A stretch of DNA of 52,506 nt from a virus (Duplodnaviria; Heunggongvirae; Uroviricota; Caudoviricetes). Of the stretch, positions 1 through 10,328 are shown one piece after another; within the stretch, counting starts at the first letter, position 1, and each line of letters opens with the position of its first letter. The notes below the pieces were generated by a model, which did no database searches, had not been told where the DNA came from, and worked only from the letters and a program-made list of their open reading frames with translations. The DNA is taken from positions 1 to 52,506 of IMG/VR virus record IMGVR_UViG_2534681604_000014. One strand, written 5' to 3'. A program made the position numbers and the translations under genes.

Positions 1-222
1 ATGCAATCCATTAACTTCCGTACCGCGCGCGGCAACCTTTCTGAAGTGCTCAACAATGTTGAAGCCGGGGAAGAGGTTGAAATCACCCGCAGAGGCCGTG
101 AGCCAGCAGTAATTGTCAGCAAGGCTACTTTCGAAGCCTACAAAAAAGCGGCGCTGGATGCTGAATTTGCATCCCTGTTTGACACCCTGGACTCCACCAA
201 CAAGGAACTGGTTAACCGATAA
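1..222 (+). CDS. phd: Phd antitoxin (prevent-host-death)
   Basis: 73-aa ORF whose sequence I recognise as P1 Phd; stop overlaps the doc start (TAATG at 220-224). Confidence 0.95.
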
Positions 223-602
223 TGAGGCATATATCACCGGAAGAACTTATTGCGCTTCATGATGCGAATATAAGCCGCTACGGCGGCCTGCCGGGAATGT
301 CAGATTCGGGTAGGGCAGAGGCCATTATCGGGAGAGTTCAGGCCAGAGTTGCCTACGAAGAGATCACCGACCTTTTCGAAGTCTCCGCCACCTACCTGGT
401 GGCTACAGCGAGAGGGCATATATTCAATGATGCCAATAAGCGTACCGCGCTAAACAGTGCGCTGCTATTTCTACGCCGTAACGGGGTGCAGGTATTTGAT
501 TCACCTGAACTGGCAGACCTTACTGTAGGCGCTGCGACTGGCGAGATATCTGTATCTTCTGTCGCCGCCACGTTACGTAGATTGTATGGTTCTGCGGAGT
601 AG
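222..602 (+). CDS. doc: Doc toxin (Fic-fold)
   Basis: 126-aa ORF with Fic-type motif [11 protein letters not shown]; translationally coupled to phd. Confidence 0.95.
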
Positions 603-606
603 ATTA

Positions 607-786
607 ATGGCACGCAAATACAACAAATTGTCCCGTGAAGCGTTAAAGATGCTTCTTGATGGCGTGAGTCGCCGCAAGGTAAAGCAATACCTGGTTGGTA
701 AGCAAATTGGAGTCAGGACCGCTATTGCTGTGTTATGCCGTCAGGAAATGGTTGTGCTTAAACAGAGAATGCCGGGCAGCAGATAA
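607..786 (+). CDS. pdcA: small post-doc protein (PdcA-like)
   Basis: 59-aa ORF from ATG 607 with GGAG about 8 nt upstream; the 586 start in the ORF track would overlap doc. Position matches P1 pdcA. Confidence 0.45.
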   Translation: MARKYNKLSREALKMLLDGVSRRKVKQYLVGKQIGVRTAIAVLCRQEMVVLKQRMPGSR

Positions 787-813
787 AGCCCAATCAGTGA
801 TTAAAGGTGTGAT

Positions 814-1857
814 GTGAAAGCCGTAATTACTCCCTTTGTACAGAAAGAGCTTGGCCTCGCCACGTTCAAAGTGGATCAGGAGGTCAGAAAGCTGGTGGAG
901 GCTGGCCGTAAATTTATTATGGAGCCGGTGCCGCGTGAGTTAATCGAGCACATGGAAGACGGCCTCGTTGTTACCGAGCAAACCATGGCAACAAATGAGG
1001 CGTTGCAGCCGTTTTTTAACAGCGATGAACTGTTTCGCCGTATTGGTGGAATTGACGCGCTGGTGGCGTGGTTGCGTAGGAAAGAGGGTCAATGCCAGGC
1101 CGCAGATCGTAGTTGGTGTGACAACCATATTGTCCACGCTGAACGAGACAATAGCGCGGTGTTGTTGTGCTGGCATCACGATAACCATTACCGGATGCGT
1201 GGTTTTAATGAGCTGAAAGAAACGCTGCACAATAATCGCGTTAACTGGATACTGGATGTCGCCCGTCAGGAAATGGGCCTTTCAAATAGCCATGATTTAA
1301 GTATTCAGGAGCTGTGCTGGTGGGCTTTCATGCGCAACATGATGCACCTGATGCCGGAAGAAGTCTGCCGCATATCAATAAATAAGATGAAGGCTACTCC
1401 GCAGGATAGCGGACCTCTGAAAGAGGCGGATATTCGCCCGTATGACGATCGCGCTACAGCATATGTTCAGATGATGGAAGAACGCGCCGCGCCGATGCGT
1501 GCAAAAGTATGCCCTGTGGATGTTGACTCCGACCCAGGTATGGCGCATTTCAAAATACCAAAACTTCAATCGCTAAAATTGCCCGAGTACATGGACTTTG
1601 TGGCTTCCCGTCCATGCTGTGGCTGTGGAGCTGCGGGAGCTGGCGCTCACATTACGCCTTATATCGTTCGTCATAGTCGATTATGCGCGCATGACATTTA
1701 TGCTATTCCTCTGTGCCAGTCATGCCAGCGTGATATTGAGCGTGACCGCGATAATTGGGAGAAGACGCACGGTAGGCTGGCGATGCATCAACGATTGTTC
1801 TTTGATTACGCGCTTGGAGTCGGCGCTATCACAAGTCATTCGTCGAGCGTTAGATAA
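814..1857 (+). CDS. pdcB: post-doc protein PdcB-like, Cys/His-rich C-terminus
   Basis: 347-aa ORF, GTG start preceded by AAAGG; C-terminal CCGCG...H...C..C..C cluster; position as in P1. Confidence 0.55.
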
Positions 1858-1858
1858 A

Positions 1859-1875
1859 ATTGCTCTAATGTATTG
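1859..1875 (+). promoter_or_regulatory. C1 operator-like 17-mer upstream of lpa
   Basis: ATTGCTCTAATGTATTG; matches the ATTGCTCTAAT core of the P1 C1 operator consensus ATTGCTCTAATAAATTT. Confidence 0.6.
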
Positions 1876-1945
1876 CTATTTATTTAATCGATGGTATTAT
1901 ATTCGACGTTGATTAGTTGACATGGGCTAATCAGTAGGTGACAGG

Positions 1946-2398
1946 ATGTTACTTAACTGGCAGGGACGCCACTTCATGGAAATAAATCACTCACGAATAA
2001 CATCGTACGAGATTGCGGATTACATGATCCGCACTAAATCTCTTCTATCAGCGAAAGAACTCGCAGCAATTCTTGAAAAGGAATACCCGCATCTGGATGT
2101 CGATAAGCGCGATGTTTATCTGCGCTTAAAGGCTATCGCTGTGTCTAAGTATTCGTCTGTTTTGATTGATGACAGTACACGCCCACGTAGATTTCAGATC
2201 CACTCTCTGAATCCTGAATTCTTTCGCCGCAGCCGCGCGCCGCGCCGGTTTGATGAAAAACTCCAGAACGAACTCTATATGACGCAGGACGAAAAGGAAC
2301 GCCGGGAGCACCAGCCTTGGGTAATGGCGCGTCAACTTTTCAATAAGGTGGTCCGTCAGCACCGTCATTACGGTAATGCCACATCCGCACGTATCTGA
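1946..2398 (+). CDS. lpa: late promoter activator Lpa (gp10)
   Basis: 150-aa ORF between pdcB and pacA as in P1, preceded by a C1 operator; alternative start at 1976. Confidence 0.7.
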   Translation: MLLNWQGRHFMEINHSRITSYEIADYMIRTKSLLSAKELAAILEKEYPHLDVDKRDVYLRLKAIAVSKYSSVLIDDSTRPRRFQIHSLNPEFFRRSRAPRRFDEKLQNELYMTQDEKERREHQPWVMARQLFNKVVRQHRHYGNATSARI

Positions 2399-2484
2399 TT
2401 GATTGCTTGCCCGTTCCGGGCCTTTTGACATGTGACTTTCGTTACCCTCGCGTCAAAAAGAGTTTTATACGAAAGGAAGCATAA

Positions 2485-3678
2485 GTGACCTGGGACGATC
2501 ACAAGAAGAATTTTGCTCGCCTGGCGCGAGATGGTGGTTACACCATCGCACAGTATGCCGCCGAGTTTAATCTTAACCCTAATACCGCACGTCGTTATCT
2601 CCGTGCCTTCAAAGAAGACACCAGGACAGCGGACAGCCGCAAGCCAAATAAGCCAGTCAGGAAGCCACTAAAAAGCATGATCATTGATCACTCTAATGAT
2701 CAACATGCAGGTGATCGCATTGCGGCTGAAATAGCGGAAAAACAAAGAGTTAATGCTGTTGTCAGTGCCGCAGTCGAGAACGCTAAGCGCCAAAATAAGC
2801 GCATAAATGATCGTTCTGATGATCATGACGTGATCACCCGCGCCCACCGTACCTTACGTGATCGCCTGGAACGCGACACCCTGGATGATGATGGTGAACG
2901 CTTTGAATTCGAAGCTGGCGATTACCTGATAGATAACGTTGAAGCGCGGAAGGCCGCGCGCGCTATGTTGCGTCGGTCCGGGGCCGATGTTCTGGAAACC
3001 ACTCTTCTGGAAAAGTCTCTTTCTCATCTCCTTATGCTGGAGAACGCCAGGGATACGTGTATTCGCCTGGTGCAGGAAATGCGCGATCAGCAAAAAGACG
3101 ATGATGAAGGTACTCCGCCTGAATACCGTATCGCGAGCATGCTAAACAGCTGTTCCGCGCAGATAAGCAGCCTGATCAACACCATTTACAGCATCCGGAA
3201 TAACTATCGAAAAGAAAGCCGGGAGGCGGAAAAGCACGCTTTGTCTATGGGGCAAGCTGGCATTGTTAAGCTGGCATACGAACGAAAGCGTGAAAATAAC
3301 TGGTCAGTGCTGGAAGCAGCTGAATTCATCGAGGCGCATGGCGGGAAAGTGCCGCCCCTGATGCTGGAGCAAATCAAAGCCGATCTGCGTGCTCCTAAGA
3401 CCAATACCGATGATGAGGAAAGGCAAACAGCCGTCGGTGGCCCTTCTCTTGAAGATCTGGACAAAGTTGCGCGAGAACGGGCCGCCAACCGCCGCGCCGA
3501 TGCCGCATTGTGGATTGAGCAGCGTAGGGAAGAAATCGCCGATATCGTTGATACAGGCGGTTATGGAGATGTTGATACTGAAGGTGTATCAAACGACCCA
3601 TGGCTGGAACAAGACCTGGACGAAGACGAGGAGGAAGACGAAGAAGTTACCCGCAAGCTATACGGGGATGATGATTAA
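2485..3678 (+). CDS. pacA: terminase small subunit PacA
   Basis: 397-aa ORF, GTG start; sequence recognised as P1 PacA; contains the pac site. Confidence 0.95.
2678..2836 (+). other. pac packaging site (4 + 3 TGATCA/G hexamers, Dam GATC sites)
   Basis: Hexamers at 2678, 2685, 2697, 2712 and at 2808, 2820, 2831 flank an AT-rich centre inside pacA; this is the P1 pac architecture. Confidence 0.9.
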
Positions 3679-5162
3679 TGGCCAGAAGTTGCGTAACGGA
3701 CCCACGTTGGCGCGAGCTGGTGGCGCTATATCGTTATGACTGGATTGCGGCCGCTGATGTTTTGTTCGGCAAAACACCTACCTGGCAGCAGGATCTGATT
3801 ATTGAGTCTGTGCAGGAACAGGGTAGCAAGACATCTGTTTCGTCTGGTCACGGTACCGGGAAATCAGACATGACTTCTATCATGATCATGTTGTTCATAA
3901 TCATGTATCCCGGTGCCCGCGCCATTATCGTTGCGAACAAAATTCAGCAGGTAATGACCGGTATTTTCAAGTACATCAAGATAAACTGGGCTACTGCCAC
4001 CAGCCGTTTTCCATGGCTTGCTGATTATTTTGTTCTGACAGAAACCGCTTTCTATGAGGTTACTGGTAAAGGGGTATGGACAGTTGTACCGAAGGGCTTT
4101 CGTCTGGGAAGTGAAGAAGCTCTCGCAGGTGAACACGCAGATCATCTTCTGTATATTATCGATGAAGCCTCCGGTGTCAGTGATAGAGCTTTCGGTATCA
4201 TCACCGGTGCTCTTACCGGACAGGATAACCGCATCTTATTGCTGTCACAGCCTACACGCCCAAGCGGCTATTTCTACGATACTCACCATAAACTGGCCAA
4301 GCGTCCTGGTAACCCTGATGGCGTTTATACGGCGATCACGCTTAACAGTGAGGAATCACCGCTGGTAACGCCAGCATTTATCAAAATGAAGCTGGCGGAG
4401 TACGGCGGGCGTGATAACCCTATGTACATGATTAAGGTACGCGGCCTATTCCCTAAATCACAGGATGGCTTCCTTCTTGGACGTGATGAGGTTGAACGCG
4501 CAACGCGGCGGAAAGTCAAGATTGCCAAAGGATGGGGCTGGCTTGCATGTGTGGACGTTGCTGGTGGTACGGGACGGGATAAGTCCGTTATCAATATCAT
4601 GATGGTGTCCGGCCAGCGAAATAAACGCCGTGTAATCAACTATCGAATACTGGAATACACAGACGTTACAGAAACGCAGCTTGCCGCCAAAATTTTCGCA
4701 GAATGTAATCCTGAGCGATTCCCAAATATCACCATAGCGATAGACGGCGATGGCCTGGGTAAAGCAACGGCGGATCTGATGTACGAGTATTATGGTATTA
4801 CCGTACAGCGTATACGCTGGGGTAAAAAGATGCATAGCCGTGAAGATAAGAGCCTGTACTTTGATAAACGTGCTTATGCCAACGTTCAAGCCGCAGAGGC
4901 CGTAAAATCTGGTCGTATGAGACTGGATAAGGGTAATGAAACTATTGAGGAAGCGTCGAAAATTCCTGTAGGGATTAACTCCGCAGGTCAATGGAAGGTG
5001 ATGAGTAAGGAGGATATGAAGAAAAAACTCAACCTGCACTCACCAGACCATTGGGATACATATTGTTTCGCTATGCTGGCGGATTATGTTCCCCAGGATG
5101 AAGTGCTTAGCGTCGAAGACGAAGCGCAGGTTGATGAAGCTCTGGCATGGCTTAATGAATGA
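3678..5162 (+). CDS. pacB: terminase large subunit PacB
   Basis: 494-aa ORF, start overlaps the pacA stop (TAATG); P-loop-like GHGTGKS. Confidence 0.95.
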
Positions 5163-5182: not shown

Positions 5183-5313
5183 TGTTTTTTAGCTACCGAT
5201 GTTACATTGAACCTGACCTCTTGCGCCTTGAGGCATTTTCGGTTTATGCTTATCAGGCACCTCATTAAAACGGGTGCCGGGATTGGAACCCCGGATAATG
5301 CAAAAGGCGACAC

Positions 5314-5337
5314 AGACGCCAAAAGCGTCTTTTTTTG
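5314..5337 (+). terminator. intrinsic terminator-like hairpin
   Basis: agacgc-caaaa-gcgtct followed by TTTTTTT. Confidence 0.6.
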
Positions 5338-5521
5338 TGTCATGCCATCGCACAGCCATACGTAGCACATAGCTCCGAGATCAATGGTAGTGCTGGCTGG
5401 GCTGCCGAAAGGCAGGCCGGTTCCCTTTTGCGCCGGTAGTTCCAACCCAGTCAGTGCTACCGCCATTGAGATTGGAACCTCACGCGGTAGCTCCTTAAGT
5501 TAGCAAAAGGAGGCTGCCATT

Positions 5522-5743
5522 ATGGCTACTATCCCTACCCCAACTCACCCTGAATTTATCTGGCGCTTTTACTCCTGCCAGAAACGTCACTATCACTTCG
5601 TTATCGCAACAACAGAAGATGAGGCCCGCTCTCAGCTTCCTGACGCCCCATGTATTTTCTCTGCCCGTTTTTCCACTGATTCACGCAATTCTCTCAGTTA
5701 CTGGTGTCTCCCTGTTAACGCTTCTGCTCAGGAGGGAGTATGA
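5522..5743 (+). CDS. small protein, icd-like (translationally coupled to antirepressor)
   Basis: 73-aa ORF; strong SD AAAGGAGG 8 nt upstream; 4-nt ATGA overlap with the next ORF; matches the P1 icd-ant layout. Confidence 0.5.
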   Translation: MATIPTPTHPEFIWRFYSCQKRHYHFVIATTEDEARSQLPDAPCIFSARFSTDSRNSLSYWCLPVNASAQEGV

Positions 5744-6855
5744 GAACGTCATTAGTCACCCGTGAAGAAATGATTGAGGCAATTGAACAGCACACAGCCT
5801 GTATCAGTACCAGGGATATACCGGGCGTTATTGCCAACTACTTCATGATCACCAAACAACTTTACCGGAGAAAGGACAAGAACGCGGTTCACCGCATTCT
5901 GCTAACCGATATCCGTGAATACCTGCTCGAACAGGGTCATCTGAATTACGCAACCGTCGCAGCCGAAGCACGCAAGGAGGCACACAGAATGAAAGCAACT
6001 AACGTTAAATCAGAAAAAATTCATGCAACTTCAGTTCAGGAATCAGAGCTGGTGGTTGTTCAGAATCAGTCTGATGAAATTCCCGTTCTGGAATGGCTGG
6101 GAGTGCGTGTAGTGACAACCAAGATCCTTGCTAAGGGGTATGGGACCGATGCGGATAACATCAAGAAGAACTTTTCCCGTAATGCCGAACGTTTTTGTGA
6201 AGGCAAGCATTTCTATAAAGTTATTGGAGATGATTTGAACAATTTGCGGGTGACTTTAAGTAACTCACAAAATCCCATCTCTCCTAAAGCCCGTTCACTC
6301 ATCCTCTGGACAGAACGCGGCGCTGCCCGTCACGCTAAAATGCTCGAAACCGATCAGGCATGGGCATTCTTTGAAAAACTGGAAGACAGCTACTTCCGGC
6401 AAAAAGAACAGCAACCGGTTGCAATCCCCCAAACATTACCAGAAGCCCTACGCCTGGCTGCCGAACTGGCTGAACAAAAGCAGCTTCTGGAACAGAAAGC
6501 CCACCAGCTAAATCAGCAGCTGGTAGCCGCCGCTCCTAAGGTCGATTTTGCCGACCGGGTATCAGTAGCTAAAGGGATCCTGATTGGGAATTTTGCAAAG
6601 GTTGTTGGACTTAAGCAAAACGCGCTGTTTGCCTGGTTACGGGAGAACGGCATCCTGATAGCGTCCGGCGGACGTAAAAATGTGCCATTCCAGCAGTACA
6701 TCAACGCCGGGTATTTCACTGTGAAAGAAGTGGTGCTAGATGATGAAGATGGCTACCAGATACGGCTGACGCCTCAATTAACGGGGAAAGGCCAGCAGTG
6801 GTTGACGCGTAAGCTGCTCGATGCTGGCTTGTTAAAACCGGTGGCGGCTGAATAA
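5740..6855 (+). CDS. antirepressor (AntA/ORF6N-like N-domain, KilAC-like C-domain), Ant1/Ant2-like
   Basis: 371 aa (about 42 kDa); internal in-frame ATG at 5989 with SD AAGGAGG gives 288 aa (about 32 kDa); C-terminal region looks like a KilAC/ANT domain. Confidence 0.65.
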   Translation: MRTSLVTREEMIEAIEQHTACISTRDIPGVIANYFMITKQLYRRKDKNAVHRILLTDIREYLLEQGHLNYATVAAEARKEAHRMKATNVKSEKIHATSVQESELVVVQNQSDEIPVLEWLGVRVVTTKILAKGYGTDADNIKKNFSRNAERFCEGKHFYKVIGDDLNNLRVTLSNSQNPISPKARSLILWTERGAARHAKMLETDQAWAFFEKLEDSYFRQKEQQPVAIPQTLPEALRLAAELAEQKQLLEQKAHQLNQQLVAAAPKVDFADRVSVAKGILIGNFAKVVGLKQNALFAWLRENGILIASGGRKNVPFQQYINAGYFTVKEVVLDDEDGYQIRLTPQLTGKGQQWLTRKLLDAGLLKPVAAE

Positions 6856-8440: not shown

Positions 8441-8474
8441 ATAGCTTCGTATAGCATACATTATACGAAGTTAT
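8441..8474. other. loxP-like Cre recombination site with one arm substitution
   Basis: ATAGCTTCGTATA-GCATACAT-TATACGAAGTTAT; canonical loxP arm is ATAACTTCGTATA, so one arm has G at position 4. Confidence 0.9.
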
Positions 8475-8572
8475 CTTAAGGGTTATTGAACATGATCAAT
8501 TTACCTGTAAATCCATACAGTTCAATACCTTATCAGGTCAAATAGTGATCACTTGATCATTTGATCAAGGTT

Positions 8573-8663: not shown

Positions 8664-8885
8664 ATGGGATATTCAGCTGCTAAAGTGTCCACTCATCTTG
8701 AGCTTGAGAAAAACCGTGGTTACTGGCGGGCAAAAGGCTTTGAGCGTGATAGTTACCAACTGTCATTATCTCGCGGTGAAGAGAAAATAGAACGCACGCG
8801 CGGTCGCTGGCGTTTCTATGACGAGAACCATAACCAGGTAAAGGCAGAGCCGATCCTGTACACTCTGCTGAAAACAATAATTTAA
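8664..8885 (+). CDS. hypothetical protein (position of P1 cra)
   Basis: 73-aa ORF between loxP and cre. Confidence 0.4.
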   Translation: MGYSAAKVSTHLELEKNRGYWRAKGFERDSYQLSLSRGEEKIERTRGRWRFYDENHNQVKAEPILYTLLKTII

Positions 8886-8904: not shown

Positions 8905-9300
8905 ATGTTTAATGGCCTGACAGATGCCAAGGTAAACGCCTTACTGAACGACGCAAAACAAAAAGCTGCTAACCCTGGAACGAATGAAAATGAACGTGCT
9001 ATGGCTGTTGCAATTTGGGAGTTAGCAGAAGAAGTAAAGCGAAACCGCTTACTATACACTCGGGTTTACCAGCAATTTGATGGTGCGAGCTGGATAGATA
9101 TCGAAGAGGCTGAATATGCAACATGCAAAAAAGAAAAAAAGATTGTTCGGATTTTGCATAAAGCAGCAACCCCAATCACTGTAGAAATCCCCGATCACAG
9201 ATATTTCGAGAACGATGATCTACCAGGGGATGTGATTCGAATTATTGATGAGATACTTCATGAACAAGGCTTAACTGTTAAAATTACGCATAATAAATGA
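8905..9300 (+). CDS. hypothetical protein, overlaps cre start
   Basis: 131-aa ORF; 4-nt ATGA overlap with cre; no recognisable motif. Confidence 0.45.
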   Translation: MFNGLTDAKVNALLNDAKQKAANPGTNENERAMAVAIWELAEEVKRNRLLYTRVYQQFDGASWIDIEEAEYATCKKEKKIVRILHKAATPITVEIPDHRYFENDDLPGDVIRIIDEILHEQGLTVKITHNK

Positions 9301-10328
9301 CTAATTCGTTAACCGTTCACCAAAATTTGCCTGCATTGCCGGTCGATGCAACGAGTGATGAGGTTCGCAAGAACCTGATGGATATGTTCAGGGATCGCCA
9401 GGCGTTTTCTGAGCATACCTGGAAAATGCTTCTGTCCGTTTGCCGGTCATGGGCGGCATGGTGCAAGTTGAATAACCGGAAATGGTTTCCGGCAGAACCT
9501 GAAGATGTTCGCGATTATCTTCTATATCTTCAGGCGCGCGGTCTGGCAGTAAAAACTATCCAGCAACATTTGGGCCAGCTAAACATGCTTCATCGTCGGT
9601 CCGGGCTGCCACGACCAAGTGACAGCAATGCTGTTTCACTGGTCATGCGACGGATCCGAAAAGAAAACGTTGATGCCGGTGAACGTGCAAAACAGGCACT
9701 GGCGTTCGAACGCACTGATTTCGACCAGGTTCGTTCACTCATGGAAAATAGCGATCGCTGCCAGGATATACGTAATCTGGCATTTCTGGGGATTGCTTAT
9801 AACACCCTGTTACGTATAGCCGAAATTGCCAGGATCAGGGTTAAAGATATCTCACGTACAGACGGTGGGAGAATGTTAATCCATATTGGCAGAACGAAAA
9901 CGCTGGTTAGTACCGCGGGTGTTGAGAAGGCACTTAGCCTGGGGGTAACTAAACTGGTCGAGCGATGGATTTCTGTCTCTGGTGTGGCTGATGATCCGAA
10001 TAACTACTTGTTTTGCCGTGTCAGAAAAAATGGCGTAGCTGCGCCATCTGACACCAGCCAGCTATCAACTCGCGCCCTGGAAGGGATTTTTGAAGCAACT
10101 CATCGATTGATTTACGGCGCTAAGGATGACTCTGGTCAGAGATACCAGGCCTGGTCTGGACACAGTGCCCGTGTCGGAGCCGCGCGAGATATGGCCCGCG
10201 CCGGAGTTTCAATACCGGAGATCATGCAAGCTGGTGGCTGGACCAACGTAAATATTGTCATGAACTATATCCGTAACCTGGATAGTGAAACAGGGGCAAT
10301 GGTGCGCCTGCTGGAAGATGGCGATTAG
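9297..10328 (+). CDS. cre: Cre tyrosine recombinase
   Basis: 343 aa, near-identical to P1 Cre from residue 6 onward; N-terminus is MTNSL rather than MSNLL. Confidence 0.97.
   Translation: MTNSLTVHQNLPALPVDATSDEVRKNLMDMFRDRQAFSEHTWKMLLSVCRSWAAWCKLNNRKWFPAEPEDVRDYLLYLQARGLAVKTIQQHLGQLNMLHRRSGLPRPSDSNAVSLVMRRIRKENVDAGERAKQALAFERTDFDQVRSLMENSDRCQDIRNLAFLGIAYNTLLRIAEIARIRVKDISRTDGGRMLIHIGRTKTLVSTAGVEKALSLGVTKLVERWISVSGVADDPNNYLFCRVRKNGVAAPSDTSQLSTRALEGIFEATHRLIYGAKDDSGQRYQAWSGHSARVGAARDMARAGVSIPEIMQAGGWTNVNIVMNYIRNLDSETGAMVRLLEDGD

Follow-up and report, generated by a model that had tools for sequence, protein, structure and literature searches.

The window, by which we mean the whole 52,506-nt stretch of DNA analysed here, carries phd-doc, pdcB, lpa, pacA, pacB, c1, loxP and cre, in this order from its start. 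The gene pacA (2485..3678, plus strand) encodes the pacase subunit that recognises pac, a protein of 397 aa with a match to the terminase family phrog_1711; over its full length it is 96.2% identical to P1 pacA at the nucleotide level and 96.5% identical at the amino-acid level, and for pacA of phage RCS47 the identity is 98.8%. The adjacent gene, pacB (3678..5162, plus strand), encodes the large terminase-like pacase subunit of 494 aa; its product matches phrog_2, the terminase large subunit family, and aligns with P1 PacB without gaps over 494/494 residues at 88% identity. Both genes are full length and stand, as is typical for the P1-type arrangement, behind an Lpa-dependent late promoter. 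This promoter, LPpac, with its -22 box and -10 (2430..2448, plus strand), is the same as the LPpac annotated in P1 at 90475-90493; the late promoter activator needed for pacAB expression is encoded by lpa (1946..2398, plus strand; Pfam PF25716, E = 2e-57).

The recombinase gene cre was found at 9297..10328 on the plus strand (343 aa; Pfam Phage_integrase, E = 5e-33), and the megablast matches over this stretch were genes annotated as cre in P1-like phages. A 131-aa ORF (8905-9300; a phrog_20152 match, no Pfam match) sits between cra (8664-8885) and cre, its stop and the start of cre overlapping; the gap from cra to cre in P1 is 8 bp. The region 10400-35000 produced one P1 match and one P7 match, with 86-93% coverage and 96% identity. 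Together with the gene order from phd-doc to cre, this similarity to P1 and P7 indicates a P1-like phage-plasmid of the genus Punavirus.

Inside pacA we observed a complete pac site homologous to that of P1 (2678..2836, plus strand; 159 bp), bounded exactly by the outer ends of hexamers 1 and 7. In a plus-strand scan for TGATCR, the hexamers fell into two sets separated by a gap of 90 bp (2718-2807): HEX4 (2678..2717, plus strand) with TGATCA at 2678, 2685 and 2697 and TGATCG at 2712, and HEX3 (2808..2836, plus strand) with TGATCG at 2808 and TGATCA at 2820 and 2831. An earlier, sequence-only reading of this DNA had reported four plus three TGATCA/G hexamers within 2678-2836, each carrying a Dam GATC; direct reading of the letters gave the same count and the same positions, with GATC present in 7/7 hexamers. 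As five of the seven hexamers are the palindromic TGATCA, strand orientation is carried by hexamers 4 and 5 only. The site occupies codons 65-118 of the 397-codon pacA; thus, it lies in the 5′ part of the gene, as a P1-type pac site does. An eighth hexamer, TGATCG at 2859, is located just beyond the pac span; P1 has it too, and Cronobacter phage JK004 is without it.

The plus strand has 49 TGATCR sites across the 52.5-kb window, which corresponds to 0.14 sites expected per 159-bp span; finding seven hexamers in 159 bp against this expectation has a Poisson P of ∼2e-10. TGATCR clusters reached at most 4 members when the window was simulated 500 times with a second-order Markov model. Chance formation of the hexamer cluster is therefore excluded. 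When a second pac-like cluster was sought in the window, the next densest group was one of 4 hexamers at 8493-8567, in the cre regulatory region.

The pac site of P1 has been described as a 161-bp sequence with seven TGATCA/G repeats arranged as HEX4 and HEX3, an IHF site and a central cleavage site (PMC10028697). The counterparts of the last two elements could be predicted in the window. The predicted IHF binding site, AAACAAAGAGTTA (2740..2752, plus strand), has the same letters as the IHF protein_bind feature annotated in P1 at 90784-90796; it differs from the consensus WATCAANNNNTTR by one mismatch and nothing else in 2650-2880 comes within one mismatch of this consensus. The predicted cleavage zone, TGTCAGTGCC (2760..2769), where staggered primary cuts on both strands are expected, is equal to the P1 sequence that bears the annotated primary cleavage positions 90804/5, 90806/7, 90810/1 and 90812/3 (AF234172), and lies midway along the 159 bp. 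Thus, a predicted IHF site and a predicted central cleavage zone lie between the two hexamer sets, as in a P1-type pac.

The sequence-only reading had called this core AT-rich. The G+C content of the whole 90-bp core (2718-2807) is 45.6%, compared with a window average of 46.5% and a pacA value of 51.6%, and only the stretch 2730-2759, the one with the IHF site, is AT-rich (33% G+C); the stretch 2760-2789, which starts with the predicted cleavage zone, has 60% G+C. The description is correct locally and does not hold for the core as a whole, which is close to the window average. We rejected it as a general term on the basis of G+C content and prefer to speak of an ‘IHF-site-containing core’.

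The P1 record AF234172 (pac at ∼90722-90880) served as the reference for an ungapped alignment to the window. The two pac sequences are identical at 154 of 159 bases, with five substitutions (positions 2717, 2757, 2781, 2784 and 2817); all seven hexamers are kept and none is lost, and so the claim of an intact P1-type pac inside pacA was borne out. Only the substitution at 2717 touches a hexamer: hexamer 4, TGATCA in P1, is TGATCG here and still fits the consensus, TGATCG being the native form of hexamer 5. The G allele is nonsynonymous (2716-2718), with PacA codon 78 reading CGC (Arg) versus CAC (His) in P1. The substitution at 2757 (C in P1, T here), 3 nt from the cleavage zone, is common to RCS47 and SJ46. 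Judging from the letters, every defining feature of a P1-type pac that can be tested in a sequence is present, and we see nothing in the sequence that would argue against the pac identity. We are therefore highly confident that 2678-2836 is the pac packaging initiation site of a P1-like phage-plasmid of the genus Punavirus.

We considered close relatives of the site in two collections. Among 80 IMG/VR contigs encoding PacA at 97-100% identity (64 distinct pacA sequences), hexamers 1, 2, 3, 5, 6 and 7 were invariant in 80/80; hexamer 4 was TGATCA in 77 contigs, TGATCG, the form seen here, in 2, and TAATCA in 1. The rare TGATCG form (2/80) was also found in the Escherichia fergusonii plasmid pHNCF11W-130kb, which is 100% identical to the window over 301 bp around pac. 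In PLSDB, 571 plasmids had the pac region at an identity of at least 90%; no PLSDB record matched the whole first 25 kb of the window exactly, the best one having 94% coverage and 96.5% identity. The plasmid pHNCF11W-130kb, at 130 kb, exceeds the P1 headful. Its positions 1-5016, directly upstream of phd-doc, contain the nitrate reductase genes narZ and narU and an ISKpn26-family transposase.

The loxP site was located at 8441..8474 on the plus strand, in the P1 orientation, with 5,763 bp separating it from the first base of hexamer 1; this agrees with the sequence-only reading, in which loxP stood about 5.7 kb downstream of pac. The predicted cut and the lox centre are ∼5.69 kb apart, versus a pac-lox distance of 3.99 kb in P1 (90806 to 94800/1). 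The distance is 5.7 kb rather than 4.0 kb because a 1.7-kb immI-like module is situated between pacB and c1 (5257-6855). This module includes an isrK-like sRNA (5257-5335), a C4 antisense RNA (5380-5467; Rfam RF01695, 76.7 bits), an icd-like ORF (5522-5743) and a gene for the antirepressor Ant (5740-6855). The P1 record has nothing between pacB and c1; the c4-icd-ant genes of P1 itself lie elsewhere, in its immI region. An antirepressor gene is also present between pacB and c1 in RCS47 and in pHNCF11W-130kb, in the latter along with an icd-like gene.

The site departs from the canonical loxP at a single base, the fourth of its left 13-bp arm, where A is replaced by G (ATAGCTTCGTATA for ATAACTTCGTATA); its spacer and right arm show no change. 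Both P1 and pHNCF11W-130kb have the canonical left arm. In the cre regulatory region (8494-8566) we saw four GATC sites, at +37, +90, +98 and +106 from the lox centre; the Dam methylation sites annotated in the P1 cre region are three, at +37, +98 and +106. The extra GATC, at 8547, corresponds to TGACCA changed to TGATCA, a change common to pHNCF11W-130kb.

The P1 pac site was reportedly the subject of work by Sternberg and Coulby in 1987 and 1990 and by Skorupski et al. in 1992 and 1994. Packaging of P1 is said to proceed from pac towards loxP, with lox placed in the terminal redundancy of the first headful, as reported by Bächi and Arber in 1977, Sternberg et al. in 1986 and Sternberg and Coulby in 1987. 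PacA and PacB bind the repeats of P1 pac, and IHF and HU bend the site; it has been proposed that pacase binds to hemimethylated pac and that further methylation promotes cleavage (PMC10028697). Dam methylation of pac is required by P1 and its own dmt gene is thus essential in dam- hosts (PMC12707154). The statement of the sequence-only reading that adenine methylation of the hexamers controls P1 pac cleavage is in line with this published account (PMC10028697, PMC12707154). Sequencing of packaged P1 DNA identified two main termini, 6 nt apart, which are the Sternberg and Coulby sites, with coverage being higher after the site (PMC5557969). The capacity of the P1 head is ∼112% of the genome, or roughly 105 kb (PMC10999674); with a head of ∼105 kb, the element described here would have to be shorter than ∼99 kb if its first headful is to include two lox copies.

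If the work on P1 is a guide for protein binding, methylation control, cleavage positions and packaging direction, the sequence of events at this locus would be as follows. In late lytic growth Lpa would activate LPpac, leading to production of PacA and PacB. The pacase would bind to HEX4 (2678-2717) and HEX3 (2808-2836), and IHF, aided by HU, would bend the DNA at 2740-2752, thus joining both hexamer sets. Upon methylation of GATC adenines on both strands, by the host Dam or by the phage Dmt, the DNA would be cut at 2760-2769, within ∼10 bp. Of the two new ends, the one facing pacB would then enter the prohead, and ∼105-110 kb would be packaged by the headful mechanism. The first headful of a series would carry loxP at both ends, and Cre could circularise the DNA after injection. 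The sequence-only reading had taken the site to confirm headful packaging capacity and orientation; both are indeed predicted by the sequence, although a sequence alone can predict them and not confirm them.

One could argue that a pac site intact in sequence may nevertheless be nonfunctional: the prophage-plasmid could be defective or too large for a headful, or the hexamer-4/His78Arg allele could impair cleavage. The visible portion of the element is only 52.5 kb, cargo-bearing P1-like plasmids can exceed the headful, and pHNCF11W-130kb, whose pac region is identical, does have a length of 130 kb, with nar genes and an IS beside phd-doc and pac; TGATCG at hexamer 4 is, moreover, rare (just 2 of the 80 contigs). 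On the other hand, pacA, pacB, lpa and LPpac are full length and near to those of P1, the similarity to P1 and P7 extends over 10400-35000 (86-93% coverage, 96% identity), and TGATCG counts among the accepted hexamer forms and is native at hexamer 5. We consider a loss of function unlikely and retain the assignment of 2678-2836 as the pac site of the element. One could further speculate that the rare hexamer-4 allele and the A4G change in loxP mark a lineage with slightly shifted pacase-pac or Cre-lox specificity. If true, such a shift could give partial isolation in packaging or recombination from co-resident P1-like elements; we regard it as a very improbable scenario.

Since the pac site is inside a gene, its hexamers might also be seen as a by-product of the PacA codons (for Asp-His, Asp-Gln and Asp-Arg) rather than as a DNA signal. 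In fact, six of the eight hexamers (the seven of pac and the one at 2859) are in the same register, xxT GAT CRx, and are read as Asp followed by His, Gln or Arg. The pattern of variation does not follow the protein, however. In the 80 contigs no part of pacA varies more than the pac segment (38/159 variable sites versus 181/1194 gene-wide), yet within it variation at the hexamers is significantly below that of the adjoining sequence: 2 of their 42 positions vary, compared with 36 of 117 elsewhere in pac (Fisher p = 5e-4).

A similar picture was seen at a larger evolutionary distance. PacA of the distant P1-like Cronobacter phage JK004 is 70% identical overall; in residues 65-118 identity falls to 18/54 (33%), and the N-terminal flank reaches 80% and the C-terminal flank 76%. 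In this least conserved segment hexamers 2-7 of JK004 nevertheless keep their gene positions unchanged (201, 213, 228, 324, 336 and 347), and the hexamers always use GAT and never GAC. Hexamer 1 is missing in JK004, and an inverted copy is present 19 bp upstream of that position. The stretch 6175-6352 of JK004 is recognisable as a pac site, with 3 + 3 hexamers and the inverted one upstream; it is unannotated, all genes being hypothetical. A search for further distant PacA homologues, conducted over one genome per species with the single protein and then with a three-sequence alignment, yielded no confirmed relatives, and JK004 is thus the sole distant comparator; the search patterns fell on low-complexity acidic stretches.

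Moreover, synonymous mutations in the hexamers lowered the phage titre of wild-type P1 ∼9-fold (PMC10028697). The JK004 positions, the variability among the 80 contigs and this published experiment effectively refute the by-product explanation, which we see as extremely unlikely; the hexamers are under purifying selection at the DNA level and not at the protein level. Their preservation inside the least conserved stretch of PacA illustrates neatly, on a small scale, how a DNA signal constrains an overlapping reading frame, though the comparison adds no new mechanism. The overlap of pac with the fastest-evolving segment of PacA might allow co-evolution of the site and the protein.

That the GATC cluster is mainly a Dam/SeqA-sensitive element for timing of transcription or replication, similar to the smaller TGATCA cluster at 8493-8567 in the cre regulatory region, where Dam sites are annotated in P1, and not a packaging site, has in our view a negligible probability, given that in P1 the cleavage termini of the homologous sequence have been mapped and its functional limits defined; a secondary regulatory role of the pac GATC cluster, in addition to packaging, may exist.

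With 2678-2836 taken as pac, the window belongs to a P1-like phage-plasmid whose module for initiating packaging looks complete. The use of this result is in annotation only; it is relevant to predicting whether the element, with whatever cargo it may have, could spread as phage particles and bring about generalised transduction.

Pac-type headful sites inside small-terminase genes occur in other phages, e.g. P22 and SPP1. The likeness to these systems is in a site embedded in the gene of the recognition subunit and in processive headful packaging from a single cut; to our knowledge, P22 and SPP1 are without the P1-type traits, i.e. the two Dam-methylated hexamer sets, the dependence on IHF and HU, and the methylation-gated cleavage. 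The likeness to P1 itself is much more detailed: the position in pacA, the 4 + 3 layout with identical spacing, the letters of the IHF and cleavage sites, the neighbours lpa, LPpac and pacB, and loxP and cre downstream on the same strand. The differences from P1 are the five substitutions in pac, hexamer 4 as TGATCG with His78Arg, the pac-lox distance of 5.69 versus 3.99 kb, and the mismatch in the loxP arm. Other carriers of Punavirus pac regions are RCS47, SJ46, P7, JL22 and pHNCF11W-130kb; among them, the pac site described here is an already known, extremely common and ordinary feature.
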